In this document: positions 179 to 50,863 of the stretch, piece by piece
How positions within the stretch are numbered: the stretch's first letter is position 1
How the letters are laid out: each line of letters begins with the position of its first letter
IMG/VR virus record: IMGVR_UViG_3300022660_000042
Origin: a virus
Lineage: Duplodnaviria > Heunggongvirae > Uroviricota > Caudoviricetes
Reading direction: 5' to 3' (one strand)
DNA length: 64,000 nucleotides
Notes under the pieces: generated by a model
Told to the model about the DNA's origin: nothing
The model's database searches: none
The model's input: only the letters and a program-made list of their open reading frames with translations
Translations under genes and position numbers: made by a program

Positions 179-442
179 CTAAATAAACATATAATTTTGC
201 TCGAACGATTCAGATGCTTCCATGCTTTCGCAAACCTGAATTTTCGTGGCTACGAGTCTCCAGCCGTATTTACCGCATTTTTCAGTGGCGAAATCGGTAG
301 CTATAGCCTTATCTGTCCAGCATAATACGTTTTCGTCAAGTTTTGTCTGATATGTATTATATTTGGTAGGAAATACTGGTTCATTCGGAAAATCAAACTG
401 AATAGTCCATTCAATTTCCTTTTTATAAGTCTTACATGTCAT
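179..442 (-). CDS. hypothetical protein
   Basis: 87-aa ORF in the six-frame track, co-oriented with neighbours. Confidence 0.4.
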   Translation of the reverse strand: MTCKTYKKEIEWTIQFDFPNEPVFPTKYNTYQTKLDENVLCWTDKAIATDFATEKCGKYGWRLVATKIQVCESMEASESFEQNYMFI

Positions 443-620
443 CTTGAATTACCTTTTCTGAAAATTCTTCAAGTTTATCCAAACTTTTCTCAGCAGCTAC
501 ACGTTCTTCTGTAACTACGTCAGTATCAAATCTGTCAAGATGGAGCATGGCCCTAGCCAATTCGGCAGCCGGAAACATTTCCATCATCGTTTTCGGTTTT
601 TCTTTATTGTCTTCATCCAT
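432..620 (-). CDS. hypothetical acidic small protein (start moved to internal ATG at 620)
   Basis: Track ORF 432..803 overlaps the uvsX 3' end and would run through the promoter/hairpin at 621-668. The internal ATG at 620..618 (MDEDNKEKP...) lies 8 nt downstream of a TATATT -10 element. Confidence 0.35.
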   Translation of the reverse strand: MDEDNKEKPKTMMEMFPAAELARAMLHLDRFDTDVVTEERVAAEKSLDKLEEFSEKVIQDDM

Positions 621-687
621 AATAATATAATATAGTAAAATAAAAGGGCCCGATTGGACCCTTTTATTTATTTGTTCTGAAAAACAA

Positions 688-1881
688 CTACACATCGTCT
701 TCGTCTTCAGCGAGAATATCACCATCGAGTTCATCGAGGTTGGCACCAGTACGGTTAACCATAGCGATACCAGTGTTTTCACTGAGGTCTTCATAACCTG
801 CATTCATAAGAGCGAGAACGTCTTCGTTTGCGTTGATAAGTACCTGTTCTTCGAATGCGAACTTGGATTCTACATAGTGTCTGAATGTTTCATCCTTATA
901 GAGAGGAATCCAGAATTTAGCACAATAGAGTTCTTCTTCCTTCCACATTCTTTCCGGCTTACCAAGTTCACCAGTTTCCGGGTCAACCTTGGCGTCGTAA
1001 CCGACACGAGCATAATATCCAGGCTTCGGCTTGTAAACTACGCCACATTCCATGGCTTCGTCCAAAAGACCGTAGTAAGGAGATACACCACCTGCATGGA
1101 GAATAAGATACTTGGTTTTGACGAATTCCTTAGCGGAACGACCCTTAGCGACAGCACAGGTAACAACCTTACCAAGAACATTCTTGCCCTTGTCACGTTC
1201 CTTCTTAGAAGAGTAACCGAGAACAATACCGTCAGCGTTGAATATGATACGCATACCACCAGGAATCTTATACGGGTCGCCGAACATTTCAAGAGAAGCA
1301 TAGACGTGGTTCATAACGAGAGTTGTAAATCCACCGCTCAAAATAATGTTTGCGAGCTCGTTCTTGAACTTTGCGGAAGACATGTTAACAGCGGAACTTC
1401 CCTGTTGTGCCTTTTCAAGAACCTGGTCTTCAATAATCGGACCCCAGGAGTCAAACAATACGAAAGTATTGCGACGTTGCTGAAGCGATCCGCATTGAGC
1501 CGAAAGCTTTGCAATAAATTGTTTAATCTTCGGAATACTGTTTGTAGGACCGTGGACACCGACTTCATCCATGTTAATTCCGAGCTTCGTAAGAAGGTCA
1601 TAGTTAACGGAGTTTTCAGTATCGACAATGAAGCAGTCCATACCAGAATCCTGTGCAGCCTTAAGAACAGAATAACCAATCATAGATTTACCCCAGCCGG
1701 AACCGGCCGCAATCATACTAATTGAACCCTTCTTAATACCGCCCTTGATTTTACCAGAAAGAACCAGATTAACCGAAATACAGTTCGTACTGAGCCATTC
1801 CACCGGAATTCGCTCGGTATGGAGAAGATCGGCCAAATCCTTATCCTTCTTCATTTTTGCAAGAAGCATGTTTTTTGCCAT
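688..1881 (-). CDS. uvsX: UvsX/RecA-family recombinase
   Basis: 397 aa. Strong collinear similarity to T4 UvsX (from memory): IPVEWLSTNCISVNLVLSGKIKGG..., P-loop GSGWGKS, and C-terminal GLLDEAMECGVVYKPKPGYYAR versus T4 GLLDMALELGFVVKPKNGWYAR. Confidence 0.9.
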   Translation of the reverse strand: MAKNMLLAKMKKDKDLADLLHTERIPVEWLSTNCISVNLVLSGKIKGGIKKGSISMIAAGSGWGKSMIGYSVLKAAQDSGMDCFIVDTENSVNYDLLTKLGINMDEVGVHGPTNSIPKIKQFIAKLSAQCGSLQQRRNTFVLFDSWGPIIEDQVLEKAQQGSSAVNMSSAKFKNELANIILSGGFTTLVMNHVYASLEMFGDPYKIPGGMRIIFNADGIVLGYSSKKERDKGKNVLGKVVTCAVAKGRSAKEFVKTKYLILHAGGVSPYYGLLDEAMECGVVYKPKPGYYARVGYDAKVDPETGELGKPERMWKEEELYCAKFWIPLYKDETFRHYVESKFAFEEQVLINANEDVLALMNAGYEDLSENTGIAMVNRTGANLDELDGDILAEDEDDV

Positions 1882-3115: not shown

Positions 3116-4192
3116 TTAACTGAAAAACTCGAACATCGTCGGGCGTTCCAAATTAATTTCTTCCTTTGGACCTAACCAACCGGCAATTCTGAACATCGTA
3201 TCAAAAAGCTGACAGAACGATTTTCTGAACGCGGTTTCATAGTCAATCTCAAAGTATTTATTAAATTCTTTCGGCCAAGATTCAAGATATGCAACCGCTT
3301 CAATCGGTTCTATCTTTCCGTCCATATCCTTAGCTGAAATCTTTTGAGAAGGCTTTACATATACATAACGCAATTTTGAGTTATTACGAATCGGATTATA
3401 TTTCAACCTGTCCTTTGTGATAATATAGTTGTAGATAATGGAAATCTTTGCACCGAAAATAAGACCTGTCGGAAGAATCAAACCATGGTCCATATAATAG
3501 TCCATAAGAGTTTCGTATTTCGTGTCGAACGGCTGTGTATTCATCGAACTTTCCATATATTGTTCTCTGAATTTATCCATTGCGATTGTAGTATATTTCG
3601 TATAGTTCTTGATACCAATAACAGACGAAATAACATTCAAATCTGAGCTCTTAAACTGGTCATAAACCTTGTAGATATATTCCTGTGCTTCTTCCTTACC
3701 GATACCGTCACAAATTTTGAACGCGAGTTCTTCGGCTGCAACCTTACAGAAGTCAGGCATTATAGATTTCTTAATAGGAATACCCATGATTTTGTGTTTC
3801 ATGTGGTCCAACGGAAACTTCTTACCTTCACTGTCGATAATATTACCGATATACAACTTCTTCGCAAAACAGAACATGTTTTTGAAGATATTTTCACGGT
3901 TAAAATTAATCTTATTGACTGTATGGAATTGTGTGGCTCGAATTTCAAGAATCCTATCAAAAAAGCGCTGGAATATGTTTTCGCATTTCTCAAAATATCT
4001 ACGATATTCATCTTCATTCGTAATCGATAAACCAGATTCTAATAAACGACGCTTAAGTTCGATAATCGAGAAATAAACGGAGTCCGTGTCATTATGTACG
4101 GCACAGACATCACGTCCTTTCACAACAAGCGGACTCATGTTGTTCATTTGAAATTTATCAATCTTTACATCTAATGCTTTCTTAAATTCCAT
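3116..4192 (-). CDS. family-B DNA polymerase, C-terminal subunit (palm motif C / thumb)
   Basis: Contains the HNDTDSVYF motif C (YGDTDS-type). Real start ATG at 4192..4190 (MEFKKALDV...) with GAGGA Shine-Dalgarno 6 nt upstream. The junction with the upstream gene is TAA-A-ATG. Confidence 0.8.
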   Translation of the reverse strand: MEFKKALDVKIDKFQMNNMSPLVVKGRDVCAVHNDTDSVYFSIIELKRRLLESGLSITNEDEYRRYFEKCENIFQRFFDRILEIRATQFHTVNKINFNRENIFKNMFCFAKKLYIGNIIDSEGKKFPLDHMKHKIMGIPIKKSIMPDFCKVAAEELAFKICDGIGKEEAQEYIYKVYDQFKSSDLNVISSVIGIKNYTKYTTIAMDKFREQYMESSMNTQPFDTKYETLMDYYMDHGLILPTGLIFGAKISIIYNYIITKDRLKYNPIRNNSKLRYVYVKPSQKISAKDMDGKIEPIEAVAYLESWPKEFNKYFEIDYETAFRKSFCQLFDTMFRIAGWLGPKEEINLERPTMFEFFS

Positions 4193-4193
4193 T

Positions 4194-6401
4194 TTAATCC
4201 TCAATACCGAGAAGGTCAGTGTCCTTGTTGAATTCATAAGCATAGATTTCCATTTCGTCATTACCGCGAAGAACGGTAATCTTTTCATAGAAATCATACT
4301 TATATGTCTTTTCTTCTGTAATAATGGAAACTGTCGAGAATTCCTTAATTACATCCTTGAGCAAGTACGGAGAAACATAGTATTCGTTAAGATGCTTAGT
4401 CAACCAGTCTCTCAAGGTAACACGAGCACAACGACAAATTGCACGGGCAACATCCGGGTCATACAATGCGAAGCTGTTTGCAAGAGATACACCGTAAACC
4501 GAGTTAATAATCAACTTCTTGGTCATTTGTCGGTTATGATAAAGATGTGCACCAGCCTTGTCACCATTCTTTTCACATTCCTTTTCCTTATTCTTATATA
4601 TCTTACGTTCTGCAAACACCTGCTTAACAACGTTCGGAAGAATACCATCGTCACGGTTATAGAACCCAAGTTCTGCAACATCCGTCGGAATAACCTCACC
4701 GGATTCAATCTGTTCCTTAGTAGGATGAACAACCTTCAATTCTGGAGAGATATGGAATTCCATAATATGGTGCGGATATGAAGACGTAATATCGAAAGAC
4801 ATACAGTCGTCATGTCGGCCAGGGAAGTCATAACAATAACCGGCTTTTACCTGGAATTCTGGGAATGGATGAGGATCCTTCTTATAAGCATTCCATGCTT
4901 CTATGAAAGCATCTTCAGTTTTCCAATGTTCAAATCGTTTCTGACCAACTATTGACCTAATCGTGGCATAATCGGCTTTTCCTACTTTCTGAGCTTCCTT
5001 ATAGGCATCATAGAAAATCCTGAACTTACAATAATCCTTGTAACGTTTTGCACCAGGTTCCCATTCAGTGTTCTCGAAGTAATCGTTTCCATCCTTATCC
5101 TTGATAATATAGCAACGTTCGTTTCTCCACCAGTCAACATGATGGTCTTCGCGGTCATTAAGCACACGGTTTGTCTTGTGCAAGAACTTCAAGATATAAC
5201 CGGTAGTCGTCGGAACTTTCTGTTCAACCTTATCGAGAGTTACAAGGCAATCGAACGCATATTCAATAATAAGGTCGAAAAGCTTATTCTTTGTTTCCAA
5301 GTCGACCATAATCATAACGTCCTTTCGGTTATACTTCAGGAAGTTATTACCGTCAATCTTGTAGGTTTCAGAAATCGCACCGCTATACTCCAATTTCTGG
5401 TCATTCAATTCGAGGTTGGCCACATAGTTAAGAGAATACGAAGAAAGAGGCGGATGAGATCCGAAGACTTCGTACAGTTTCATGTAGTCAAGCGAATACA
5501 AACCAGGAATGGTATATTTAGTTCCGAGTTCGACATTTTCCATCTTGCGGTCAGTAATCTTTTCCGCAATAGGCATCATGCCAAGAGGAGACAACTGCTT
5601 TTCCCATTCTACCTTTATATCCAGTTTTTCTCTAAGGACTTCACAACGACGCATGATATACGGAATATCGTATGCAAGCGAATTCCAACCTGTAATGATG
5701 TCAAAATGGTTATTGGCGAACCACTTTATCCATTCTCGGATAAGTACCGCTTCTGACTTACAATACGTATAGTTAGGCAAATCCTTAGGGTCATCCGTAT
5801 ATCTGATTGTACTCCAGGTATAAGATTGCTTTGTCTTTGTAGAATAACAAGTAATTGCGTTAATCGGCCATTGTGCTATTTCAGGAGACGGGAAATCATA
5901 GGAAACGAAACAGCTGTCTTCGTACGGAAGATATTTATCAACTTCAATATCATAAACGAAATACTTATCATGGTCAAACTTCATGTCGAAATCAATAAGA
6001 CTAACATCGATAGTCTTATTGGTTTTCTTCTCACAAACTTTAATCAACGTTTCGTCATAATACTTACTGCCAGACGCAACTTCAATATCGAAGAAACAAA
6101 TGTTCCACAAACTCATGTCTACATGGAGTTCTTCGTTATCGTACAGCTGATGCATGTATTTGACTTCAGGACGCAAATTACCTTCACAGACGCCTTTCAG
6201 ACCTATTAACGAATTTCGGTCCTTATAAGGGAACCTTTCCATTGGAGTCTTATGAATATCGGTAAGCTTGCTCTTTTTTGTCTTATCAGGAATGTAGCAC
6301 CAGTTATTGAATTCTACTTCCTTAAATTCAGTATCTTCTTGGGCCTTAAAGTATAACTTTTGTTTCTTAAAGTCCCAATAACAATTTTTAAATCCACTCA
6401 T
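4194..6401 (-). CDS. family-B DNA polymerase, N-terminal subunit (3'-5' exonuclease plus palm motifs A and B)
   Basis: 735 aa; Exo I FFDIEVASGS; motif A SFDITSSYPHHIM (DxxSLYPS-type); motif B KKLIINSVYGVSLANS (KxxxNSxYG). Ends with TAA at 4196..4194. Confidence 0.85.
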   Translation of the reverse strand: MSGFKNCYWDFKKQKLYFKAQEDTEFKEVEFNNWCYIPDKTKKSKLTDIHKTPMERFPYKDRNSLIGLKGVCEGNLRPEVKYMHQLYDNEELHVDMSLWNICFFDIEVASGSKYYDETLIKVCEKKTNKTIDVSLIDFDMKFDHDKYFVYDIEVDKYLPYEDSCFVSYDFPSPEIAQWPINAITCYSTKTKQSYTWSTIRYTDDPKDLPNYTYCKSEAVLIREWIKWFANNHFDIITGWNSLAYDIPYIMRRCEVLREKLDIKVEWEKQLSPLGMMPIAEKITDRKMENVELGTKYTIPGLYSLDYMKLYEVFGSHPPLSSYSLNYVANLELNDQKLEYSGAISETYKIDGNNFLKYNRKDVMIMVDLETKNKLFDLIIEYAFDCLVTLDKVEQKVPTTTGYILKFLHKTNRVLNDREDHHVDWWRNERCYIIKDKDGNDYFENTEWEPGAKRYKDYCKFRIFYDAYKEAQKVGKADYATIRSIVGQKRFEHWKTEDAFIEAWNAYKKDPHPFPEFQVKAGYCYDFPGRHDDCMSFDITSSYPHHIMEFHISPELKVVHPTKEQIESGEVIPTDVAELGFYNRDDGILPNVVKQVFAERKIYKNKEKECEKNGDKAGAHLYHNRQMTKKLIINSVYGVSLANSFALYDPDVARAICRCARVTLRDWLTKHLNEYYVSPYLLKDVIKEFSTVSIITEEKTYKYDFYEKITVLRGNDEMEIYAYEFNKDTDLLGIED

Positions 6402-6409: not shown

Positions 6410-6446
6410 AATATAGAAAAAACCTACAAATGATTAAATTTGTAGG
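6410..6446 (-). promoter_or_regulatory. -10 TATATT plus hairpin (CCTACAAAT...ATTTGTAGG) upstream of DNA polymerase
   Basis: Plus-strand AATATA at 6410..6415, 8 nt from the polymerase ATG (6401); hairpin at 6423..6446 followed by a T-run. Confidence 0.45.
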
Positions 6447-7173: not shown

Positions 7174-8193
7174 TTAATTCGCAGCTGTCTCAAGCTCAGC
7201 ATCAGTGGTCGTGTTTTCTTCATTAGATGGCATTTCAAAAGTCGATTCTCCGTCTGCTACAACTTCGAATTCTTCAACAGGTTCATTAGATTCTTCTTTA
7301 TGCTGTGCTTCTTGTTTTTCTTCAGATAGCTTCTTAATTCTTTCACTATTAGCCTTCACCAAAGCAAGTCGCTTAGCACCTTCGTCTACTTGGACAGAAG
7401 ATTGCTTAGTAAGCGTACTTCCCAATTCACTCAGATCTGCGGTTTCGAGCATTGCATCGAGGTTAGCTTTCTTTTCTTTCAAGATTTCTTCTTCAGTTTT
7501 CGCAGGTTCTGCTTTTTTAACAACTTTAGGTTTCGTTACTTGCGGTGCTGCTGCAGTTTCAGTTACTTTTTCAGTCTTCTTTTCGACAACTTTGGCTGCA
7601 ACGGGCTTTTTCTTAATAACAGTCTTTTTAACCGGAGCAGGTGCTACAACAACTTCCGGTTCTTTTTCTTTGTAAATAATCTTTGGAGCTGGCGGTGGTG
7701 GATTCATGATTTCATCACACATGTCCAACATGCATTCATTAAGCTTTGTGAGGCCAGTCATTCCATATTTAAAAAACATTGCGGTCATTTTCTCTTTCAT
7801 TTCGTCAATAAGAGAAAAAGCTTCAGAAAAAGCGGGGTTATTAATATAACCCGCACTTTCTGTAAATGTTTGTGGCTTTTTAGCTGGACGTCTGCGAACA
7901 GGCGCCGGCTCTACATAATTCGTATCATCGTCAAAATCGGGTTCAGCAGGAACTGGTGCAGGACGCGGTGCCGGAGCAGGAGCCGGACGTGGCGCAGGCC
8001 TTGGTGAAGGACGCTGCGTACGATGGGCTTCATTTATTTCCGGAACTTCGTCATTATAGAATTCATCATCTTCAAGCTCATCGACATTGACTGTCTGAGC
8101 CTTATAATTCTTATATGCCTCAAGTTTCTGTTCTTCGGTATAAGACGGGTCGTTTCTATGTAGATAGCTTATAAAAGAATCACCATTACTCAT
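7174..8193 (-). CDS. hypothetical Pro/Ala-rich protein
   Basis: 339 aa with a PRPAPRPAPAPAPRPAPVP repeat and K/E-rich coiled segments. Confidence 0.5.
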   Translation of the reverse strand: MSNGDSFISYLHRNDPSYTEEQKLEAYKNYKAQTVNVDELEDDEFYNDEVPEINEAHRTQRPSPRPAPRPAPAPAPRPAPVPAEPDFDDDTNYVEPAPVRRRPAKKPQTFTESAGYINNPAFSEAFSLIDEMKEKMTAMFFKYGMTGLTKLNECMLDMCDEIMNPPPPAPKIIYKEKEPEVVVAPAPVKKTVIKKKPVAAKVVEKKTEKVTETAAAPQVTKPKVVKKAEPAKTEEEILKEKKANLDAMLETADLSELGSTLTKQSSVQVDEGAKRLALVKANSERIKKLSEEKQEAQHKEESNEPVEEFEVVADGESTFEMPSNEENTTTDAELETAAN

Positions 8194-8238
8194 AATTATA
8201 CCTTATTTATAGAAGTTATTTTTAAAATATAGAAAATT

Positions 8239-10645: not shown

Positions 10646-11044
10646 TTATTTAAATGTTTCGTTTGTTTTCAATGCTTTTAATATATTTTCTTGTAATTCA
10701 TGAGACTTCGCAGCATGTTCAGAAAGCTTTTTATCGAATTCACGGTCCTCTTTGAGCTGCTTATTACGAGCAAGAGCTTGACTGATACGAATAGGAAGGA
10801 AAATTGCCATGAAATAACCGAATGCCATTGCAATATATGGTACAATGTCGGTCATAAAATACATTATTCCTTTCTTAAGTGTATCTCCAAACACACCAAA
10901 TCCGCCTAAAACTAGGGTATAAACCAAGACCATAATAAGAGTACCGATAACCAGTCCCTTATTGGCCTTGATATTCACCCAAAAATTCTTAATTTTGGCA
11001 GGAAATTTAGACGTATTTTGATTAGATGTCTTCATTGTCTTCAA
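10646..11044 (-). CDS. small membrane protein
   Basis: Two hydrophobic helices (GLVIGTLIMVLVYTLVLGGFGVF, IVPYIAMAFGYFMAIFLPI). Confidence 0.5.
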   Translation of the reverse strand: MKTMKTSNQNTSKFPAKIKNFWVNIKANKGLVIGTLIMVLVYTLVLGGFGVFGDTLKKGIMYFMTDIVPYIAMAFGYFMAIFLPIRISQALARNKQLKEDREFDKKLSEHAAKSHELQENILKALKTNETFK

Positions 11045-11351
11045 GAATTACTTCCACTGCAGAATCAGGAATCTGGTAATACTTCGTCTTAACGTAAGCA
11101 CCCTTATCATTCTTTGCAGCGATATTGAGTTCGATTGCCTTCAAATCTGTAAAAATAATGCGGTCACCGACAGATACGGTGCACGGAATTCGAGAATCCG
11201 TAACGGCATTATACTTACCTGGGCCAACGGCAACAACTTCGCCATAAACAAGCTTACCCGAGCTATCAAGTTCCGGAATATAAATACCGCCTGCAGTCTT
11301 CGTATCACCGCTACGGCGCTTTACAAGCACATAGTTATCGTTCATCTTCAT
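11022..11351 (-). CDS. GroES/gp31-like co-chaperonin (copy 1)
   Basis: 109 aa, GroES/Cpn10-like pattern: TAGGIYIP, mobile-loop-like segment, GEVVAVGPGK, GDRIIF. Confidence 0.7.
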   Translation of the reverse strand: MKMNDNYVLVKRRSGDTKTAGGIYIPELDSSGKLVYGEVVAVGPGKYNAVTDSRIPCTVSVGDRIIFTDLKAIELNIAAKNDKGAYVKTKYYQIPDSAVEVILEDNEDI

Positions 11352-11365: not shown

Positions 11366-11695
11366 TTACTTAATTTCTTCGTTATCGTCAAGAATGCAGG
11401 TACATTCGTTTTCGGCAACCTTGACCAACTTGAGCTTACTGACATTTCCCTGTTCATCCTTAACAGAAACAGTTACTTCAGTTGTGACACCCGGATTATA
11501 AATCACACGGTCACCAACCTTGAGTTCAATCGGAGTAAGTTTCTTGGTAAACGGATTATACTTACCCGGTCCAAGTTTTACAACTGTACCGAGAGCCATA
11601 GGAATCGTTCCAATTCGGGGAATAAATAAGCCTCCGACAGTCATTTTGTCGAAAGGTTCCTCTTTTACGAGTACGTTATTTTCTGTAGTTTTCAT
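11366..11695 (-). CDS. GroES/gp31-like co-chaperonin (copy 2, tandem paralog)
   Basis: 109 aa, the same architecture as copy 1 (MTVGGLFIP...GTVVKLGPGK...GDRVIY). Confidence 0.7.
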   Translation of the reverse strand: MKTTENNVLVKEEPFDKMTVGGLFIPRIGTIPMALGTVVKLGPGKYNPFTKKLTPIELKVGDRVIYNPGVTTEVTVSVKDEQGNVSKLKLVKVAENECTCILDDNEEIK

Positions 11696-13498: not shown

Positions 13499-13533
13499 AA
13501 TATAGTAAAATGACGGGCTTTTGTAAACCCGCC
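13499..13533 (-). promoter_or_regulatory. sigma70-type promoter TTTACA-17-TATATT with -35 inside hairpin
   Basis: Plus-strand AATATA at 13499..13504, TGTAAA at 13522..13527, hairpin GACGGGCttttgtaaaCCCGCC at 13512..13533. Confidence 0.55.
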
Positions 13534-14144: not shown

Positions 14145-14173
14145 TTTACAAAAACGCTTCAGTTTGCTATATT
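14145..14173 (+). promoter_or_regulatory. sigma70-type promoter for the CCA-adding enzyme gene (TTTACA-17-TATATT)
   Basis: -35 TTTACA at 14145..14150, a 17-nt spacer, -10 TATATT at 14168..14173, and ATG at 14181 only 7 nt downstream, i.e. a leaderless arrangement. Confidence 0.55.
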
Positions 14174-14180
14174 TATTAAC

Positions 14181-15368
14181 ATGAAGATTGATTTATCGAC
14201 TATCAAAAATGACCTCCTCACTTCTGGTATGAAACTCGCTTCCGCTATCGAAAGCAAGGGTTACGAAGCATATCTGGTTGGCGGTTGCGTTCGTGACATG
14301 GTTCGTTGGACTATTGGCCAATGTGGTTTTCCGGATATTCACGATATTGACATCAGCACGAACATGCCTATCGATGAACTTCAGAAAAACTTCAAAACTG
14401 CCAGTAACAATGGCGAAGCTCACGGCACTATTCTGGTTTTCCAGGACGGTGAGCCTTTTGAAGTGACTCAGTTCCGTACCGATGGCGCTTATACCGATGG
14501 TCGTCACCCGGATTCAATCAAGTTCGCCAAGACTTTCAAGGAAGACTGCTTACGCCGCGATTTTACTATCAACGCAATGGGTCTTACCGGTCAGGGTGAA
14601 GTCATTGACTATTACGGTGGTATCGATGATGTTACGAACGGCATTATCCGAGCTGTCGGTAAGGCAGAAGACCGTTTTGCTGAAGATTATCTCAGAATTT
14701 TCCGCGGTGTTCGTTTCATGGTCAACTTCGACTATTCTTTGGCTGATAGTACCTATGAAGCGATGAAGACAACCGTTGATACTTATACTTATAAGATTAA
14801 CTCTCTGTCTTATCCTCGTATTCGTGATGAAATCAGCAAGGTCAAGAATCCTTCTAAGAATCTCGCTTTGTTTTTCACGACACTGTATCGTACCGGTATT
14901 CTGAAATACTTGGTTACTTTCGAAGATGTTGATATTCCGGGTCTGATTGCACGTTTAGAATCTGTAAATCATCTCACTGCGGATAACATCTTTGCGGTTA
15001 TCGCTTTCGGCGAATACGACGTAATGTTACATCGTCTTGCTGCTACTCGAGAAGATTCTCGTTTGCTCAAGTGGTATTATTACATGCTCAAGAAGCTGAA
15101 AGAACCTAACGAAAATACAAGCTGGGACACTATTGTTAAATTCGTCGAAGGTGATTACAAAACTCTCCTCGAACTGTCCAAGATTGTTCCTGCCTGGTAT
15201 AACAGAATTCCTATCGCTTTGAAGCTTAAAAAGGATAAACCCGATTTACATGCTATCTCTGAAAGAGTTCAGAACGAATTTCATGTTAAACCAGGTCCTA
15301 AGTTCGGTGCAGCTGTTAGCTACCTGCTCGAAGAGGCTTACGAAGCAAAAGCAAGGCATCTTCAATAA
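14181..15368 (+). CDS. cca: tRNA nucleotidyltransferase (CCA-adding enzyme) / poly(A) polymerase family
   Basis: Class II nucleotidyltransferase head motif GGCVRD with downstream D.D and RRDFTINA-like signature; 395 aa. It is the only convincing plus-strand gene. Confidence 0.8.
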   Translation: MKIDLSTIKNDLLTSGMKLASAIESKGYEAYLVGGCVRDMVRWTIGQCGFPDIHDIDISTNMPIDELQKNFKTASNNGEAHGTILVFQDGEPFEVTQFRTDGAYTDGRHPDSIKFAKTFKEDCLRRDFTINAMGLTGQGEVIDYYGGIDDVTNGIIRAVGKAEDRFAEDYLRIFRGVRFMVNFDYSLADSTYEAMKTTVDTYTYKINSLSYPRIRDEISKVKNPSKNLALFFTTLYRTGILKYLVTFEDVDIPGLIARLESVNHLTADNIFAVIAFGEYDVMLHRLAATREDSRLLKWYYYMLKKLKEPNENTSWDTIVKFVEGDYKTLLELSKIVPAWYNRIPIALKLKKDKPDLHAISERVQNEFHVKPGPKFGAAVSYLLEEAYEAKARHLQ

Positions 15369-17551: not shown

Positions 17552-17738
17552 ACTTATGAGTCTTATCGAGTTCTACCGTTTCAATAGTACATCCAGCTTC
17601 ATACTTTTCACGAATGAAACTTTCAAGTTCTCCGCGAACTTCAGTTTCCGTTTCGCCATAACGCTTAAAAACAAGCGGTCCTGGAATACCTTCAATTAAA
17701 ACCAAGCACTTATAACGTTGTTTCATTATTTTTCCCAC
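17463..17738 (-). CDS. hypothetical acidic protein
   Basis: 91-aa ORF whose 3' end overlaps the annotated 5' end of the RNA ligase ORF. Confidence 0.4.
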   Translation of the reverse strand: MGKIMKQRYKCLVLIEGIPGPLVFKRYGETETEVRGELESFIREKYEAGCTIETVELDKTHKYEPKKKVEKKNDDLAEEPTPETAEQAQTP

Positions 17739-18391
17739 ATGGCATCGGTTTTGACCAGTTCATCAATGCTTACTGGACGATACCATGCTTCCCAGCTAAC
17801 ATTGTTTTCGACCATTTTGCCGTTATGGTTATCGACAACGCTAGTCTTGTTGAATTCATGCGTATGACCATGAACGAGATAGTCAATAGGCTTACCTTCC
17901 GCAAGATACTGGTTCAATGCGGTCGGGTCACCAGTTGTACCGTCATGTTCATTAATCGTTTCATCATAATTATAATGCTGCAACAGATAGTTCTTACCAT
18001 TATACGTAAGGTAAATGTTATCCTTTACCATAGTAATGTTCGGAAACATAGTTTCCTTGACCGGATAGAGCTTCTTGAACAGAGCATAGTCATGATTACC
18101 ACGAATCATATACATGTGCTTGAAATTCAACTTGTTCGTGTAATAATCGCCAAACACTTCAAGCAACTTGCTACCGGGAGTACCGAGAGTAAAATCACCG
18201 AGGAAAATGACAATATCATTCGGAGAAACAACAGAATTCCATTGCTTCACAATATCTTCATTCATTTCCTCGACGGTTACGTACTTTCGTGTACGGTCAA
18301 AATGATCCTCGTAACTCGTGCAGAGTTTACGATGATTAACGTGCAAGTCACTGACAATAAAAATCTTTTCGTTGTGTAATTCTAGTTCCAT
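17726..18391 (-). CDS. calcineurin-like metallophosphoesterase
   Basis: Motifs SDLHV (DxH), GDF, GNHD and GHTH in canonical order. Start moved to ATG at 18391 (MELELHNEK), 6 nt downstream of a TATATT -10. Confidence 0.75.
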   Translation of the reverse strand: MELELHNEKIFIVSDLHVNHRKLCTSYEDHFDRTRKYVTVEEMNEDIVKQWNSVVSPNDIVIFLGDFTLGTPGSKLLEVFGDYYTNKLNFKHMYMIRGNHDYALFKKLYPVKETMFPNITMVKDNIYLTYNGKNYLLQHYNYDETINEHDGTTGDPTALNQYLAEGKPIDYLVHGHTHEFNKTSVVDNHNGKMVENNVSWEAWYRPVSIDELVKTDAMWEK

Positions 18392-18397
18392 AATGCA

Positions 18398-18432
18398 AAT
18401 ATAATAAAAATAAGGCATTTTGTAAATGCCTT
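18398..18432 (-). promoter_or_regulatory. promoter (TTTACA-17-TATATT) with -35 inside a terminator-like hairpin
   Basis: Plus-strand AATATA at 18398..18403; hairpin AAGGCATTttgtAAATGCCTT at 18412..18432 contains the -35 (plus-strand TGTAAA). Confidence 0.5.
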
Positions 18433-22082: not shown

Positions 22083-24011
22083 TTACTTCTTTGTTTCGGA
22101 GAACAAATCAATAAGAGTGTCCTTGCTCAACTGAGTCAAATCAAGTCCAACTTCAGAATCCTTATCGGAATCGTCAACAAATGTAAAGCCTGCTTTTTCA
22201 AGAATCGGCTTCAGGTTGACGAACGAACGACACTTATTCTTGAGGTTTTCAATATACACGTCTGCATATTCATGATTTGGCACACGTCCACCACCTTGAG
22301 TAAGGTCCATGAGGAATACCTTATTGTCTACAATAAGTGCACACTGCTTTTCGCGTTCATTATCAACTGGAATGATAAATTCAGCGAGAACATTGTTCGG
22401 ATCCACCTTTACATCCACACGCTGGCTATAATAAGCATCTTTCTTAAGCTTCTTCTCTTGACGAGCAACGAAGAACTTAAACTGAGACTTAGGAGAACCA
22501 TTGTACTGGTTTACCGATACCTTGCCATCAGGACACTTACAGTCAATGTAGAACAATTCTGTTGCTTCCGGACGAGCTGTAGTCATATCACCCGAGTAAA
22601 TGATCTTATTCTCATGGTCCTTGTAACTTGCGTTCCAACCATAAGTACCTCCATTAATGTCATACATATGAAGGTCAAAATCCTGGGTTCCCCATTCTCC
22701 ACGCCAATAGATACCAACAACGTTGTGGTCGTCGGACATATCAACGGAAGTGCCAAACGGATAATTACCGATGAAGTTCTTTTCAGAAGTCGGCATTGTC
22801 AGATTGACATGCTGAGGATAACGAACAGTACATGCCTTATCCTTGATAGACTTGACCAACGAATCTTCAAGAAGATTGTAGACAACCATCAAGTAGGAAT
22901 TCAATTCCTGATTAGGCACCGGAGCATCCTTACGAACCCACATCTTGCCGTTACGAATTACATACATCTTTCCGCTAGCATTCTGGAGCTTAGCGAGAAT
23001 ACCCTGCATGAGCGTGACCTTCTTGAAATTGGTGATTTCACCCTTTGCAAGACGTTCACGAACTTCGTCCAGCTTCTTGTGTTCAGAAAGTACAGTTTCC
23101 CAGAAACCTGCAGTAAACGGCTTATGGTCAGTAACAGCCAAACGACGGATATGGTTAATAACCGAGGAGTTTGTCTTCTGTCCAACAACAACGGCCTTAA
23201 GCTTTGCTGCGGCCTTTCTGAAAGCTTCATTCTTGAAAACTGCCGGCTTACCGTCAACCTTTTGGTTCTTGAACGCTAAGAATAACGGCTTGAAACGATA
23301 GAAAATCGAAGCGAGAGCGTGTAGCTGCTCATCCGACAACTTCGTAAAGTCGACAGTTTCTGCCTTTTCCTTAATGGCCTTGATAGTCTTTCGGTCCTTG
23401 ATAAGCATGGCGCTGCCAGTTGCCTTAAAGACGAAATAACGTAACATGTTGAACGGGTCCTTGCCGTAGATACCTGTTGCATCCATCAATGCTATGGAAG
23501 CTTCCTTATTCTTGATGGAATCGACGTCGAGTCCATAAGTATTGAAACGCTTATCTTGCGTAATGAAGTTCACAAGGACATTAATGGTTTCAGTTTCAAG
23601 GGCAATCCCGGACTGGAGCATCTTTACACAGCGTGTATAAATTTCCTCGTCAGTCGCAGGCATAATAACCTTGAATGAATTGTACGGAATTTCTACGTCC
23701 GGAGCGTTGTTTGGAATATACGCATCGCCCGTATAATTTGTGCCATAAGTAGAGGCATAATGAAGAAGTTGATCTACCAACAGTTCAAAACGCGTCTTGG
23801 ACGTAATGTCAGACCACTTAGCATAAAACGTCTTATTGTAATTGGTCTTAGCTTCAGCATTCACCCAGTCAAGGGCAAGCTTCGAGCAACAGTCGGGATG
23901 AATAATCCAACCATACTTTGCTGATTCTGCGTTAACCTCTTCAAAAGAGCGCTTAGAGTTACCTTCTGCCTTAGGCATGACATTGAACATTGTAATCAAC
24001 TTAAGATTCAT
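22083..24011 (-). CDS. large hypothetical protein (642 aa)
   Basis: Long uninterrupted ORF with RBS AGGAAAAATT-ATG and an upstream promoter at 24103..24131. No motif I could assign. Confidence 0.6.
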   Translation of the reverse strand: MNLKLITMFNVMPKAEGNSKRSFEEVNAESAKYGWIIHPDCCSKLALDWVNAEAKTNYNKTFYAKWSDITSKTRFELLVDQLLHYASTYGTNYTGDAYIPNNAPDVEIPYNSFKVIMPATDEEIYTRCVKMLQSGIALETETINVLVNFITQDKRFNTYGLDVDSIKNKEASIALMDATGIYGKDPFNMLRYFVFKATGSAMLIKDRKTIKAIKEKAETVDFTKLSDEQLHALASIFYRFKPLFLAFKNQKVDGKPAVFKNEAFRKAAAKLKAVVVGQKTNSSVINHIRRLAVTDHKPFTAGFWETVLSEHKKLDEVRERLAKGEITNFKKVTLMQGILAKLQNASGKMYVIRNGKMWVRKDAPVPNQELNSYLMVVYNLLEDSLVKSIKDKACTVRYPQHVNLTMPTSEKNFIGNYPFGTSVDMSDDHNVVGIYWRGEWGTQDFDLHMYDINGGTYGWNASYKDHENKIIYSGDMTTARPEATELFYIDCKCPDGKVSVNQYNGSPKSQFKFFVARQEKKLKKDAYYSQRVDVKVDPNNVLAEFIIPVDNEREKQCALIVDNKVFLMDLTQGGGRVPNHEYADVYIENLKNKCRSFVNLKPILEKAGFTFVDDSDKDSEVGLDLTQLSKDTLIDLFSETKK

Positions 24012-24102
24012 AATTTTTCCTCATTAAAAGTGTTAAAGCGAGAAGTAAGTATTTTGCCTAAATTATAATGATATAGGAACATCCTTTGCTTTAACGGTGT
24101 TA

Positions 24103-24131
24103 AATATAGTAAATTGTTTGTGTTTTGTAAA
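24103..24131 (-). promoter_or_regulatory. sigma70-type promoter TTTACA-17-TATATT for the 22083..24011 gene
   Basis: Plus-strand AATATA at 24103..24108 and TGTAAA at 24126..24131, 17-nt spacer. Confidence 0.55.
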
Positions 24132-24139
24132 CCCTATTT

Positions 24140-24307
24140 TTAAAGGTTTTTTAATGCTTTTTTCCAAGCCTTTACTTTCTTCTTGGATTCTTTGCTCAGT
24201 TTTAATCCGAAAATATCCATTAGTGCATTGGCAGTATCAACACCTGCCAAACGACTTTCGAGTTCTTTCTTCTTTAACGAATTTTCCGTTTCCAATGAAC
24301 TTCCCAT
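24140..24307 (-). CDS. small basic hypothetical protein (55 aa, possibly leaderless)
   Basis: ATG at 24307 lies 8 nt downstream of the -10 of the promoter at 24316..24344. The track ORF start at 24325 would sit inside the promoter. Confidence 0.35.
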   Translation of the reverse strand: MGSSLETENSLKKKELESRLAGVDTANALMDIFGLKLSKESKKKVKAWKKALKNL

Positions 24308-24315
24308 ACATGTAT

Positions 24316-24344
24316 AATATAGCAAGTGTATTTTATTTTGTAAA
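24316..24344 (-). promoter_or_regulatory. sigma70-type promoter TTTACA-17-TATATT
   Basis: Plus-strand AATATA at 24316..24321 and TGTAAA at 24339..24344, 17-nt spacer. Confidence 0.55.
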
Positions 24345-24356
24345 CCCCTAAATATA

Positions 24357-24388
24357 AAAAAGTAGAGCCGGTTGACTCTACTTTTAAA
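24357..24388. terminator. rho-independent terminator hairpin
   Basis: AAAAGTAGAG-ccggttga-CTCTACTTTT inverted repeat with flanking A- and T-runs, downstream of the patatin gene. Confidence 0.65.
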
Positions 24389-24402
24389 TTAAAACCCGAA
24401 TA

Positions 24403-25272
24403 TTATCGATTTTTTACAAAATCTAAAATATCCTTTTTAACTGATTCGTAGTAGTCATCCCAGATTTTCATAACTAAATTAATAGTTTTATCTGATACAT
24501 CATCCATTTTTATCTTTTTTGTATAATTCGGAGATGCATTGAAAACATACTTATCGCCGAGAATGGCTTGTGCTTCATAAATTGGTGATTTTGAACTTCT
24601 TGCTACCCAATCTCCAATCATATATTCTGCCCATCCTAACAATGTTTTATTTCCATGTTCTGTATTTGGTGTATTCATTCCAGTATTAAAATTTAAAAGT
24701 TTAAGATTTCGATTGCCTTGTTTAAATTGACCAGCAATAACTATATCGGCAGGGTTATTTGCCCAACAGCCACCGTCCATATAAGAGTTTCCATCTTTTT
24801 CTATAACATCAAAATATGTAGGTGCTGCTGTTGATGTAAGTACAGCAAATGCCTTTGTTGTATCTTTATCACCTAAATCCCACACTTTTTCTACAGAAGC
24901 ACCATTCATAAATGTTGTTGTAATATAGATAGGTTTTTTCCAATCACTAACTTTACCTTTAAGTTTTTCTTCTAAAATTTTTTTAAGATTTGTATTATCA
25001 TATGTTGGACACGTTGGTTTAAGTCGTTTATACCAGGAATTTTTTGTAAAAATTTTCTTTAAATTATCTTGGTATAATTTAAATATATCATGTGCACTCA
25101 TACCTTCATTCATACATGCAGCAACTATTGAACCCGTAGAAGTACCAGTATATGCTGATACATAATCACCTAATTTTTTACCTAGATCTTGTTCCAATCT
25201 GCACATAAATGCTAAAGGTCCCATAGCCAAGGCTCCACCACCTTCAATACTTAAACACAATTGTTTGCCCAT
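24403..25272 (-). CDS. patatin-like phospholipase
   Basis: Oxyanion-hole GGGALAMG (GGGxxG) near the N-terminus and nucleophile elbow GTSTGS (GxSxG); DGG near the end of the domain. Confidence 0.8.
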   Translation of the reverse strand: MGKQLCLSIEGGGALAMGPLAFMCRLEQDLGKKLGDYVSAYTGTSTGSIVAACMNEGMSAHDIFKLYQDNLKKIFTKNSWYKRLKPTCPTYDNTNLKKILEEKLKGKVSDWKKPIYITTTFMNGASVEKVWDLGDKDTTKAFAVLTSTAAPTYFDVIEKDGNSYMDGGCWANNPADIVIAGQFKQGNRNLKLLNFNTGMNTPNTEHGNKTLLGWAEYMIGDWVARSSKSPIYEAQAILGDKYVFNASPNYTKKIKMDDVSDKTINLVMKIWDDYYESVKKDILDFVKNR

Positions 25273-25303
25273 AAAATTCTCCTAATATAATTTTATATTA
25301 TAT

Positions 25304-25822
25304 TTATATAATTATATTATTCCGAATTTTTTCTATAAGTATATCCAACTCTTTTCTTTTTAAAATAATAACATTATTTTTTATCATGCATTCTTGTTTT
25401 TCCAGTTGTAATTCTTTTGTAAATGGATTTATTAATTGATTATTATCATTAAAGAAAAAATCTCCTTTAACTTCATAAAATTTACCATTTATAATAAAAT
25501 CTGGCTTATATTTATGTTCTTGTTCTTCTTTAATATAAGTAAACGTAATTTTTGGATGATATTCAAACACATTCTTACTGGACTGTAATGCTTCATATAA
25601 TTCATATTCCCAGTGAGAATCGAAATATATATCATTATAATAAAAACCATATACTGTATGTGATTGTGTATTTGGATTTTGACCGGGATTTTTATAACCA
25701 GTTTTTTCATAATATGTTTGCTGACATTTAGCAAATGATTCAGGATTCGACCAATTATGGTAATACCCTGTTTTTCTAAAATATTCTTCAGAACGTTGTT
25801 TTAAATGTTCTGGATTTTTCAT
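25304..25822 (-). CDS. repeat-containing protein (tandem ~23-aa YFxKTGYYHNWSNPES repeats); same frame as upstream ORF across a single TAA
   Basis: Repeats continue upstream of the annotated ATG through 25823..25927 with no stop until the TAA at 25930..25928. Confidence 0.5.
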   Translation of the reverse strand: MKNPEHLKQRSEEYFRKTGYYHNWSNPESFAKCQQTYYEKTGYKNPGQNPNTQSHTVYGFYYNDIYFDSHWEYELYEALQSSKNVFEYHPKITFTYIKEEQEHKYKPDFIINGKFYEVKGDFFFNDNNQLINPFTKELQLEKQECMIKNNVIILKRKELDILIEKIRNNIII

Positions 25823-25927
25823 ATTATGAGTATAACCAGTTTCTTTAAAATATGTATCTATACATTTTTGTCGTGAATCTGGATTAGACCAATTATGATA
25901 ATATCCGGTTCTTTGAAAATATGTATT

Positions 25928-26260
25928 TTATGTTCGAAGCCTAACATCTTGTTTCCATTCATCAGTATGAGAATGCCATGTTTCTGATGCAGATAATTTT
26001 GCTTCTTCACTTTGTCTTGCACACAATGTACAACAATAACGTCTATAACCGTATGTAAAATTTATAAATTTTGTTTCTTTACCACAATTTTTACAAATAT
26101 TTTCATCAGGTTCTTTTAAATATTTATCATAATATTCACGAGAATGTATATTGTGCTTAACTAATAAATGTGTAGAAATTCCCAATGATTTTATTTGTTT
26201 ATGACAGAATTTACATTCTATTATATCATGTCTTACTATATTAAATTTACTTATACTCAT
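25928..26260 (-). CDS. zinc-ribbon protein
   Basis: Two CxxC pairs (CKFCHK...CKNCGK) plus CCTLCARQ; 110 aa. Confidence 0.5.
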   Translation of the reverse strand: MSISKFNIVRHDIIECKFCHKQIKSLGISTHLLVKHNIHSREYYDKYLKEPDENICKNCGKETKFINFTYGYRRYCCTLCARQSEEAKLSASETWHSHTDEWKQDVRLRT

Positions 26261-26403
26261 TAAAAAACTCCTACCTAATTCTTGCCCAATTAGATAGGAG
26301 ATAATACGATAACGTATTTTTCAAATTTTTCTACTATTAAAAGGGCAAGTTTTAATAATACTTATATAGTATTTATAATATTTGCCCGTTTTATTTTGTA
26401 ATA

Positions 26404-26970: not shown

Positions 26971-27330
26971 TCATAAACCACGCGACGCTGAACTGGGGGC
27001 TTTCTTCATTTTTTCCTTATGTTCATTCATAAGTTTTTCAGCAAGTTCATATGACGGAATATAAGAACCAACATCCCATGAAGCATCTTTTGAACAAATA
27101 TGAGGTTTAGATTCTTCTTTCCAAATATGACTATCACGGTATCTTAAATATCGTTCCATATTATAGGTCAAGCGAAACCAATTCTTCGAACCGCTATTTA
27201 TCTTACGATATTCAACAACAAACCATGACGGGTCTCTGTTTACAATACTTGGAGCAACATCAAAATCGAACGTCGGATATTCATATGTACCGAGTTCTAT
27301 AATACGATATTCATAAAGCGATTTTTCCAT
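26971..27330 (-). CDS. hypothetical protein
   Basis: 119-aa ORF. Confidence 0.45.
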   Translation of the reverse strand: MEKSLYEYRIIELGTYEYPTFDFDVAPSIVNRDPSWFVVEYRKINSGSKNWFRLTYNMERYLRYRDSHIWKEESKPHICSKDASWDVGSYIPSYELAEKLMNEHKEKMKKAPSSASRGL

Positions 27331-28484
27331 TAGAACACATATCCTTCACGAGATTTACCGGTTGTAACATTACGCAAGATAGTCGGAATAATTTCACCAG
27401 CCTTCGTAATAATAACTTCATGACCGATTTCGATGCCCATATATTCAAGCATGTCAATATTGCACATATTTGCACGCTGAACTGTAGTTCCGCAAAGTTC
27501 AACAGGTTCAACTACTGCAACCGGAGTCAAATTGCCATTCTTGATAGACCATTCAATGTTAATGAGCTTGGTCTGAGCAAGAGAATACTTCGGCTTGAGT
27601 GCAATCGAGAATTCCGGCAAATAATTGGTTTCAAGATCTTCATAATCAATCAAAGACGTCTTCCAAACAAGACCGTCAATCTGATAATCACGTTCTTCAT
27701 GCCAAATCTGGTCCATAAGAGCGACAGCCTTTTCACCGTTCATGGTTTTAAGGTCGTAAATCTTGTAGTCAACAACATCAAAACCCTGGTTTTTCATCCA
27801 ATCAAGCATATCAGACTGAAGTCGGAAATGACGCTTGGTGTTAGAGGCATAGCGAGCTTCATAAACCTTGATATTAAGCTTTTCACAATCTGCACCGTCG
27901 AGATGCTTCATAATACCAGAAGCAGCATTTCGGCAGTTCTTATACTTCGGGAAATACTTTTCCTTAACGGACTTGTAAAGCAAAATTTCGCCGCGAATAG
28001 TTCCTGTAAAATCCTTATCGACTTTCTTGACGAGACCATTCATCTTAAGAATATTATTGGTAATGTCGTCACCGTATGTACCATCACCACGGGTAGTACC
28101 CTGAACGAACTTTCCATCGACGTATTTAAGCGCAATAGAGCAGCCATCGAGCTTCAAAGGAGCAACGACATATTCATGACCATTCATACGGCACTTATTG
28201 AACCAGACATCCATTTCTGGAGCCGTATTGGCCTTATTCTGAGAACCCATGATAATATCATGCTTGACTTTTTCAAAACCTTCAGTATGGTCCTTACCAA
28301 CTTCCTTCAAAACATCAGAATCAGGATATTTAGTCTTCAGTTCATCCCAGAGTGCATCAAATTCAATGTCGCTCATGATAGGAGAATCGGAATTATAATA
28401 GGCATCTTGTGCCTGACGGATTTTTGCTTCAAGTTCGTTCTTATTCATGTGATACAATATAGTAAAAAATATAGGCTTTGTCAA
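27330..28484 (-). CDS. ligA: NAD-dependent DNA ligase (LigA-type adenylation domain, compact phage form)
   Basis: N-terminal LigA-like opener AQDAYYNSDSPIMSDIEFDALWDEL; adenylation lysine motif KLDGCSIALKYVDGKFVQGTTRGDG (compare LigA [25 protein letters not shown]). Confidence 0.85.
   Translation of the reverse strand: MTKPIFFTILYHMNKNELEAKIRQAQDAYYNSDSPIMSDIEFDALWDELKTKYPDSDVLKEVGKDHTEGFEKVKHDIIMGSQNKANTAPEMDVWFNKCRMNGHEYVVAPLKLDGCSIALKYVDGKFVQGTTRGDGTYGDDITNNILKMNGLVKKVDKDFTGTIRGEILLYKSVKEKYFPKYKNCRNAASGIMKHLDGADCEKLNIKVYEARYASNTKRHFRLQSDMLDWMKNQGFDVVDYKIYDLKTMNGEKAVALMDQIWHEERDYQIDGLVWKTSLIDYEDLETNYLPEFSIALKPKYSLAQTKLINIEWSIKNGNLTPVAVVEPVELCGTTVQRANMCNIDMLEYMGIEIGHEVIITKAGEIIPTILRNVTTGKSREGYVF
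28456..28484 (-). promoter_or_regulatory. sigma70-type promoter TTGACA-17-TATATT embedded in hairpin
   Basis: Plus-strand AATATA at 28456..28461, TGTCAA at 28479..28484, and hairpin TATAGGctttgtcaaCCTATA at 28470..28490. Confidence 0.55.
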
Positions 28485-30387: not shown

Positions 30388-30411
30388 TAAAAACTCCTTT
30401 TATAATTTTGT

Positions 30412-30444
30412 AATATAGAAAAAGGGGAGACTTTCGTCAACCCC
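30412..30444 (-). promoter_or_regulatory. sigma70-type promoter TTGACG-17-TATATT with -35 and spacer inside a GAAA-tetraloop hairpin followed by T5
   Basis: Minus strand reads GGGGTTGACGAAAGTCTCCCCTTTTTCTATATT. Plus coordinates: AATATA 30412..30417, CGTCAA 30435..30440, hairpin 30424..30444. Confidence 0.65.
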
Positions 30445-31116: not shown

Positions 31117-31148
31117 AATATAGAAAAAGGGCCGACTTTCGTCAACCC
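31117..31148 (-). promoter_or_regulatory. sigma70-type promoter TTGACG-17-TATATT inside GAAA-tetraloop hairpin plus T-run
   Basis: Minus strand reads GGGTTGACGAAAGTCGGCCCTTTTTCTATATT. Plus coordinates: AATATA 31117..31122, CGTCAA 31140..31145, hairpin 31129..31148. Confidence 0.65.
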
Positions 31149-37296: not shown

Positions 37297-37358
37297 AATA
37301 TTGCAAATATAGTAAATATTTTTTAACCAATTTTATTTTGTCTTACAAACTTCTGAAA

Positions 37359-50862: not shown

Positions 50863-50863
50863 A

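Follow-up and report, generated by a model that had tools for sequence, protein, structure and literature searches.

Start codons adjoining two classes of predicted promoter suggest leaderless expression in a T4-like phage

The 64,000-nucleotide stretch of viral DNA analysed here (the window; record IMGVR_UViG_3300022660_000042) contains a set of genes whose ATG start codons lie within a few nucleotides (nt) of predicted promoters, and these genes are the subject of this study. Almost all of the open reading frames (ORFs) in the window are on the minus strand, tightly packed and co-oriented, and the G+C content ranges from 29 to 42%. In our census of 103 ORFs, 59 have a clear Shine-Dalgarno (SD) site and 27 have a weak site or none, many of the latter being coupled to an upstream gene. 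The remaining 17, about one gene in six (17 of ~103, ~16%), have a promoter-adjacent ATG.

The window encodes a gp43-like family B DNA polymerase (~32% identity to cyanophage gp43) that is divided between two ORFs, homologues of UvsX and UvsY, an RNase H, an NAD-dependent DNA ligase, a CCA-type nucleotidyltransferase, an rnlA-like RNA ligase and a prohead protease, as well as a gp2-like DNA end protector (phrog_429) and a tail tube protein (phrog_45). Judged by these replication, recombination and virion genes, the phage is a distant, uncultured member of the T4-like group. A megablast search of the window against 50,697 phage records gave no match, a tblastn search with the polymerase returned distant gp43 matches only, and no major capsid, portal or terminase gene was recognised within the 64 kb. 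Contigs that encode an identical or near-identical RNase H are up to 300-428 kb long, those with the identical proteins P0007 and P0004 measuring 303 and 428 kb; the phage genome is therefore probably large, more than 250 kb, and the window only a part of it. Relatives were recovered from the rumen sample STEW19 and from metagenome-assembled genomes (MAGs) of yak omasum and horse faeces, and these samples, together with a match to the cow-rumen-2 RNA described at the end of the text, point to the rumen or the herbivore gut as the habitat.

Two promoter classes beside start codons

In the first class, which we call early, a strongly conserved -10 element, cTATATT, precedes the ATG by 6 nt in three genes, 7 nt in four, 8 nt in three and 9 nt in one. 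A -35 element (TTGACA, TTTACA, TTGACG or CTTACA) stands exactly 17 nt before TATATT at 8 of these 11 sites, as it also does at SD-led sites, and it often falls within the stem or loop of a preceding hairpin with a T-run, a structure that resembles a terminator for the gene before it. Where this promoter precedes other genes, they start at least 19 nt downstream (19-26 nt or further) and have AGGAG-like sites. No ATG lies 10-18 nt behind a true TATATT promoter, and the range of 0-5 nt is also empty. This early spacing fits what would be expected of start-site selection by a sigma-70 holoenzyme.

The CCA gene (14181..15368, plus strand) illustrates the arrangement, with a -35 TTTACA at 14145..14150, a 17-nt spacer, a TGc-extended -10 TATATT at 14168..14173 and 7 nt (tattaac) before the ATG at 14181. 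The other early-class genes are on the minus strand. The N-terminal part of polB (4194..6401) follows a hairpin and T-run, with the -10 at 6410..6415, 8 nt from the ATG at 6401, and no good -35. For the metallophosphoesterase gene (17726..18391), the -35 TTTACA (18421..18426) lies in the loop of a terminator-like hairpin and the -10 (18398..18403) is 6 nt from the ATG at 18391. An ORF of 55 amino acids (24140..24307), which has no family match, shows a -35 TTTACA at 24339..24344 and a -10 at 24316..24321, 8 nt from the ATG at 24307. The NAD-dependent DNA ligase gene (27330..28448) has a -35 TTGACA at 28479..28484 and a -10 at 28456..28461, 7 nt before the ATG at 28448. The RNase H / 5'-3' exonuclease gene (40274..41128) carries ttttacCTATATT, with the -10 at 41136..41141, 7 nt from the ATG at 41128, and no -35. 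Its neighbour, encoding a protein with a signal peptide (41170..41661), has a -35 TTTACA at 41692..41697 and a -10 at 41669..41674, again 7 nt from the ATG (41661).

A spacing of 6 nt is found at an N6-methylase-like gene (49195..49647; -35 CTTACA at 49677..49682, -10 at 49654..49659, ATG at 49647) and at the gene 51822..52415, where the hairpin GGTTGACGAAAGTCAGCC and its T-run contain the -35 TTGACG (52445..52450) and the -10 occupies 52422..52427, ahead of the ATG at 52415. A small acidic ORF (432..620) follows a hairpin and T-run, with the -10 at 629..634 and the ATG 8 nt further on at 620; a second TATATT, 3 nt away, overlaps the first. The weakest early case is the gene 36943..37296, whose -10 (37306..37311) is 9 nt from the ATG at 37296. 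The earlier note on this DNA, which had drawn attention to the pattern, gave seven of these -10-to-ATG spacings on both strands, and all are correct to the base; it had overlooked four further TATATT genes (ATGs 28448, 41128, 49647 and 52415) and the whole of the late class. It had set them beside two SD-led genes, 29488..30387 and 30662..31090, which do have the same promoter type; their AAGGAG and GAGGAG sites end 6 nt before the ATG rather than 8. At the first of these (minus strand, 30385..30440), the same hairpin, -35 and -10 cassette is followed, from a -10 at 30412..30417, by a 24-nt leader with AAGGAG 6 nt before the ATG at 30387.

This terminator-promoter cassette recurs on the minus strand as a hairpin, GGTTGACGAAAGTCnnCC, then a T-run, with the 5' arm forming the -35 TTGACG, 17 nt before cTATATT. 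Its -10 elements are at 52422..52427, 34707..34712, 31117..31122 and 30412..30417, and on the related contigs L013 and L015 near 11044 and 4065, respectively; it is kept in relatives at just 30-60% protein identity. Between the -10 at 34707..34712 and the ATG at 34681 (minus strand) there is a mini-ORF of three codons, ATG GAG ATT TAA, which starts 12 nt after the -10 and whose GGAG also serves as SD site for the gene that follows. Before the ATG at 13459 (minus strand; -10 at 13499..13504), a 39-nt region without an SD site contains a perfect 8-bp inverted repeat, AGTGTAAT gcaatgt ATTACACT, which could be an operator or a leader hairpin.

The second class, here termed late, is built on a box of the T4 late type, (T/C)ATAAATA, of which ~16 gene-proximal copies occur on the coding strand and for which no -35 is conserved. 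At six genes (ATGs 43820, 45668, 54553, 55871, 58440 and 63985) the distance from box to ATG is exactly 4 nt, and at four of the six a hairpin and T-run come before the box. The remaining boxes are 10-33 nt from the ATG, and an SD site is present in all except the 10-nt case. Among the genes that follow late boxes in the window are those for the tail tube (phrog_45) and the gp2-like protein (phrog_429).

All six box+4 genes are on the minus strand. In the gene 42960..43820 the box cATAAATA (43825..43831) is separated from the ATG at 43820 by taat, and the box contains the upstream gene's stop codon. The gene 45357..45668 has a hairpin and T-run, the box TATAAATA at 45673..45680 and then tgat before the ATG at 45668. 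The same box at 54558..54565 is followed by atat and the ATG at 54553 of the gene 54203..54553, an arrangement kept in the related contig L009. In the gene for the gp2-like DNA end protector (55410..55871), a cTATATT at 55886..55891 overlaps the cATAAATA at 55876..55882, and acgt leads to the ATG at 55871. The gene 57661..58440 has a hairpin and T-run, TATAAATA at 58445..58452 and taat before the ATG at 58440, and the gene 63293..63985, at the window edge, has TATAAATA at 63990..63997 and agat before the ATG at 63985. For comparison, the tail tube gene (minus strand) is SD-led, with TATAAATA at 60952..60959 and 16 nt containing GAGGA before its ATG at 60935.

An intermediate between the leaderless and SD-led modes is provided by the gene 7174..8193 (minus strand), which has both promoter types stacked (cTATATT at 8226..8231 and TATAAATA at 8204..8211). 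Its ATG at 8193 is 10 nt from the late box with a weak AAGG only, and the leader would be ~5-6 nt long without an SD site.

It might be asked whether AT-rich hexamers and ATG codons simply fall together by chance in an AT-rich genome, given the G+C content of 29-42% and the 142 copies of TATATT on both strands of the window. TATATT followed at 6-9 nt by an ATG that opens an ORF of at least 40 amino acids occurs 11 times, and non-overlapping permutations of the hexamer give 0-4 occurrences; ATAAATA followed at 4 nt by ATG occurs six times, and permuted heptamers give at most one. Under identical criteria, the complete T4 genome (168.9 kb) contains no sigma-70-like promoter less than 11 nt from a gene-like ATG, and its nearest late box is 12 nt from such an ATG, with boxes clustering at 21-29 nt. 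The +4 peak is also absent from 693 kb of other RNase H-bearing loci taken from genome collections, a control that is only rough because the loci are heterogeneous. The sites in the window, moreover, co-occur with -35 elements at 17 nt and with upstream terminator hairpins, and their geometry is kept in relatives. Chance is thus effectively refuted by the permutations, T4 and the 693 kb of RNase H loci, and we assign it a negligible probability. A scan at the Rfam gathering thresholds found no known RNA element at the promoter-ATG sites; its sole match in the window was the cow-rumen-2 RNA.

Initiation codons and related contigs

All 17 promoter-adjacent starts are ATG. The anti-SD duplex energy of their upstream regions is between -3.0 and +2.7 kcal/mol, compared with -5 kcal/mol or lower in the 59 SD-led genes, which bears out the earlier claim that the cited genes have no room for an SD sequence. 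The base at -1 is C or T in every one of the 17, compared with 42 of 81 other ATG genes (Fisher p = 6e-5), and a pyrimidine occupies this position at 19 of 19 promoter-adjacent starts in the relatives. Bacterial RNA polymerase usually prefers to start on a purine (+1) preceded by a pyrimidine (-1), and the invariant -1 pyrimidine therefore fits initiation of transcription at the A of the ATG. Promoter-adjacent genes are also less structured over their first 45 nt (-2.2 kcal/mol) than other genes (-4.0 kcal/mol; p = 0.0014), as would be expected if ribosomes have to load at a free 5' end.

Alternatively, the promoter-adjacent ATGs might be unused and translation might begin further downstream, behind conventional ribosome-binding sites. 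In-frame ATGs with an SD-like match do occur within 60 codons in two of the 17 genes, at codon 40 of the CCA gene and codon 31 of the RNase H gene. The first would cut the start of the PolyA_pol head domain, and the second would lose residues 1-30 of RNase H, including invariant positions; none of the other 15 genes has a start of this kind in that stretch. Pfam domains begin at residue 4 in RNase H, at residue 9 in the phosphoesterase (Metallophos) and at residue 30 in the CCA enzyme (PolyA_pol head domain). In an alignment of 17 RNase H sequences the window protein opens directly with the conserved core, and invariant residues appear from position 15 on. Conservation extends to the first ATG itself, as seen in the N-termini MYKN, MAGITT (in the tail tube comparison) and MNxK(I/V)L (RNase H). 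We rejected downstream SD-led starts on this basis, the two matches both deleting conserved residues, and regard them as very improbable; the question of whether such starts exist had been left by the earlier note, and no usable one was found within 60 codons. These comparisons, although indirect, indicate that the promoter-adjacent ATGs are the real initiation codons.

Automatic annotation tends to misplace such starts. On the minus strand, longest-ORF or automatic calls cross the genes' own promoters and overextend them upstream to ATG 18418 (17726..18418), TTG 28484 (27330..28484), TTG 24325 (24140..24325) and ATG 803 (432..803); the longest ORF of the ligase begins at a TTG inside its -35. 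The N-terminal extension MPLRGFLLYFDS of P0011 apparently results from translation through a TATATT. L015 shows the reverse mistake: the ATG at 4065 was passed over for one downstream, at 4095.

Related contigs, designated L001 to L018, were used to follow the spacing. The close relatives (L001-L003 and L005-L012, 85-100% protein identity) keep the geometry, as L011 does for the CCA gene. RNase H homologues gave access to more distant contigs, and at 30-70% protein identity these keep the spacing while the spacer sequence and the N-terminal length change. For RNase H, the window, L013 (61% identity) and L015 and L016 (50%) all have TATATT+7+ATG, with spacers tgaggac, ttagttc and tgaacat and N-termini MNNKIL, MNKTKVL and MKVL, respectively. 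The orthologue of 42960..43820 in L015 (L015:18510; 46% identity) has ATAAATA+4+ATG with an N-terminus 5 residues shorter, and the orthologue of 51822..52415 in L015 and L016 has the same hairpin cassette with TATATT+9, the MYKN N-terminus being kept. L015 and L016 each hold six ATAAATA+4+ATG genes in 21 kb, and in L015 both an amidase gene and the tail tube gene follow late boxes. Of 16 promoter-adjacent ATGs of this kind, 14 had been picked independently as starts by the gene callers of the source databases.

Among these relatives, sequence comparison indicates that polB, RNase H, the tail tube gene and the 37296 gene switch between leaderless-type and SD-led forms. polB in L002 and L003 has a 7-nt spacer of different sequence, and in L004 (68% identity) the same -10 is followed by ~42 nt with AAGGAG before the ATG. 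RNase H is SD-led in L017 and L018, with an N-terminus 14 residues longer. The tail tube gene, box+16 and SD-led in the window, is box+4 in L015, and the two proteins are 70% identical from residue 1. The orthologue of 37296 in L013 is SD-led (GGAG). More distant relatives, at ~40% RNase H identity, show little of the pattern, and the trait therefore appears to characterise one clade.

Leaderless expression and its alternatives

Taken together, these features suggest that 17 genes of a T4-like phage are placed for leaderless expression from two promoter classes, a reading that we consider likely. From the arrangement of the DNA we infer that the promoters are active, exactly where transcription starts, how ribosomes bind, which temporal class each promoter belongs to and what the late factor is. 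The early/middle class would be read by the primary-sigma holoenzyme of the host (-35 TTGACA/TTTACA, 17-nt spacer, cTATATT), and the late class, which resembles T4 late promoters with its (T/C)ATAAATA box, would be read with a gp55-like factor. In the 17 genes RNA polymerase would start at, or a few nucleotides from, the A of the ATG, giving a messenger RNA (mRNA) with a 5'-terminal AUG and no SD leader, and ribosomes would bind this AUG directly, by analogy with lambda cI and Thermus phages. The remaining genes behind the same promoters have leader regions no shorter than 10 nt (late boxes) or 19 nt (TATATT), almost always with a site of the AGGAG type, and others are translationally coupled. 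The proposal of leaderless mRNAs made in the earlier note is thus supported, if indirectly, by the geometry, the -1 pyrimidine, the start codons and the relatives.

The genes could instead be expressed by polycistronic read-through, with SD-independent initiation through reinitiation coupling or at AU-rich, S1-dependent sites, the promoters having come to lie near ATGs through genome compactness. The close packing and common orientation of nearly all genes would suit this, and so would the 27 other genes with weak or no SD sites, many of which overlap an upstream stop codon. The ATGs at 43820 and 54553 are only 7 and 17 nt past an upstream stop, and the orthologues of the methylase-like and gp2-like genes in L015 are coupled to the upstream gene. 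Compaction alone, however, predicts a broad spread of distances, whereas those seen are 4 nt or 6-9 nt, with 0-5 (early) and 10-18 nt empty. Most candidates also follow a hairpin and T-run that should stop read-through, and a -1 pyrimidine together with a spacing kept despite changes in the spacer are properties of start-site selection, not of coupling. We therefore regard read-through as an unlikely, if not trivial, alternative.

For the late class, a further alternative is that transcription starts 6 nt after the box, inside the ATG, and that the boxes serve downstream genes or are inactive while the adjacent genes are expressed in some other way. In T4 numbering, the late box (TATAAATA in the window) occupies -13 to -6 relative to the start site (PMC2988020), and a 4-nt spacer therefore puts +1 on the U of AUG unless the start is 1 nt closer. 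With the A of the ATG as +1, the window late box occupies -12 to -5, and the start is 5 rather than 6 nt after the box. The start chosen by bacterial RNA polymerase often shifts by one nucleotide toward a purine, which counts against transcription starting inside the ATG. So does the exact spacing of 4 nt in six window genes and at least eight genes of relatives, all with a pyrimidine followed by A, and the gene at 43820 and its orthologue L015:18510 keep box+4 even though their N-termini differ by 5 residues. This explanation seems to us a little less probable than read-through.

Several of the points raised above weigh against leaderless expression, and others join them. The promoters and transcription starts are themselves predictions from sequence. 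polB, RNase H and 37296 have no recognisable -35, with only a T-rich stretch and cTATATT before the ATG, and the 9-nt spacer of 37296 may leave a leader of 1-3 nt. Translational coupling is possible at 43820 and 54553, given the upstream stops, and the T4 position of the late box would displace +1 from the A. Nor was any homologue of gp55, gp33 or gp45 detected by PHROG scans or by tblastn with T4 proteins in the 64-kb window, which is part of the genome (for gp55, this also favours the alternative of a start inside the ATG in the late class); the three were likewise not found in the relatives' sequences examined, which encode gp44-like and gp32-like proteins. Finally, the close relatives are not independent evidence because they are too similar to the window.

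Leaderless expression itself is known, and the reading offered here is not of a new mechanism; its use by a T4-like lineage would be new, and surprising for the T4 family. The classical leaderless mRNA of an E. coli phage is that of lambda cI, where the sigma-70 promoter PRM places the start of transcription at the A of the AUG and translation proceeds without an SD site; Shean and Gottesman 1992 is listed among the references of a study of leaderless genes (PMC12340547). In lambda this concerns a single regulatory gene, whereas here it would concern 17 genes, including those for DNA polymerase, ligase and RNase H and, in a relative, the tail tube. Leaderless transcripts are also known from the lytic Thermus phages phiYS40 and Lalka27a. 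According to a recent preprint, many of their transcripts, from promoters of different temporal classes, have the A or G of the start codon as first nucleotide (bioRxiv 10.64898/2026.04.20.719267, citing Sevostyanova et al. 2007). Most transcripts are leaderless in those phages, whereas here ~16% of genes would be, mixed with strong AGGAG sites, and their late promoters are of the TAGGGT type, in contrast to TATAAATA here. The phylum of the Thermus phage hosts itself expresses many genes without leaders, and in Deinococcus-Thermus a -10 element at a fixed short distance from the start codon marks a leaderless promoter, with the spacing being important (PMC12340547). Leaderless genes of Actinobacteria are likewise described as having a -10 adjoining the start codon (PMC4007540, PMC4633059). 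Those are cellular genomes rich in leaderless genes, whereas the window belongs to a phage lineage. Its SD usage points to a host with a functional anti-SD sequence.

Late promoters of T4, which depend on gp55, gp33 and gp45, share with the late class of the window the same 8-bp box, the lack of a conserved -35 and a position upstream of virion genes. They differ in that the nearest box in T4 is 12 nt from the ATG and most are 21-29 nt away and followed by an SD site, whereas six boxes here are at 4 nt. In other phages, mapping of transcription start sites in phiKZ found no leaderless transcripts, and the 5' untranslated regions of AR9 are 26-491 nt long. Full-text literature searches found no report of leaderless expression in T4-like phages; together with the T4 and 693-kb controls, this agrees with the earlier judgement that it would be unusual for such a phage.

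We lean, though not strongly, towards a broader reading in which leaderless mRNAs are a routine product, from host-sigma and gp55-type late promoters alike, of a whole clade of T4-like (probably jumbo) phages of the herbivore gut. They would include the mRNAs of essential replication enzymes and, in some members, of a major virion protein, and orthologues would flip between the leaderless and SD-led forms over short evolutionary distances. If true, T4-type late promoters that start at AUG would be without known precedent. T4 is the reference for phage control of transcription and translation, and its late promoters always precede leaders; a box 4 nt from the AUG would extend the known abilities of the gp55-type machinery. 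The broader reading would also imply either that the host is efficient at translating leaderless mRNAs or that the phage alters initiation in their favour. The leaderless and SD-led orthologue pairs (polB, RNase H and tail tube) would offer a natural series for studying the cost or gain of leaderless initiation. For annotation, longest-ORF or SD-driven callers would mis-start these genes, and for host prediction the combination of strong SD sites with frequent leaderless genes could be a usable clue to the rumen host.

Further features of the phage

The polymerase gene is split on the minus strand. The first ORF (4194..6401; 735 amino acids) contains the exonuclease domain and part of the polymerase domain and ends in TAA; the second begins with an ATG at 4192, 2 nt after this TAA, encodes 358 amino acids and has a GAGGA SD site, and the pair spans 3116..6401. 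The second ORF matches the C-terminal part of the phage polymerase profile phrog_262 (positions 573-741 of 856). Two adjoining genes on the minus strand, 11022..11351 and 11366..11695, encode GroES-like co-chaperonins (phrog_3188), which may be functional counterparts of T4 gp31, here duplicated.

Two islands of low G+C content (0.29-0.30, compared with ~0.38 elsewhere) lie at ~24000..26400 and 50000..52000. The first holds homing-endonuclease-like ORFs at 25304..25822 and 25928..26260, and SD sites are scarce among the genes of the second. No tRNA gene is present in the window. The matched MAG contigs carry the labels Bacilli, Clostridia, Bacillota and Paludibacteraceae, all from herbivore guts, which are uninformative on the host because the phage itself may have been binned there.

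A full-length match to the cow-rumen-2 RNA (RF02947), an orphan Rfam family, lies at 42541..42645 on the plus strand and scores 102.8 bits against a gathering threshold of 66. It is on the strand opposite to that of nearly all genes, in a non-coding gap of ~550 nt between the uvsY-like gene and the ORF 42800..42949. The RNA is also found in the near-identical contig L006 and is absent from the more distant relatives scanned. The match places a motif of unassigned function in a T4-like phage.

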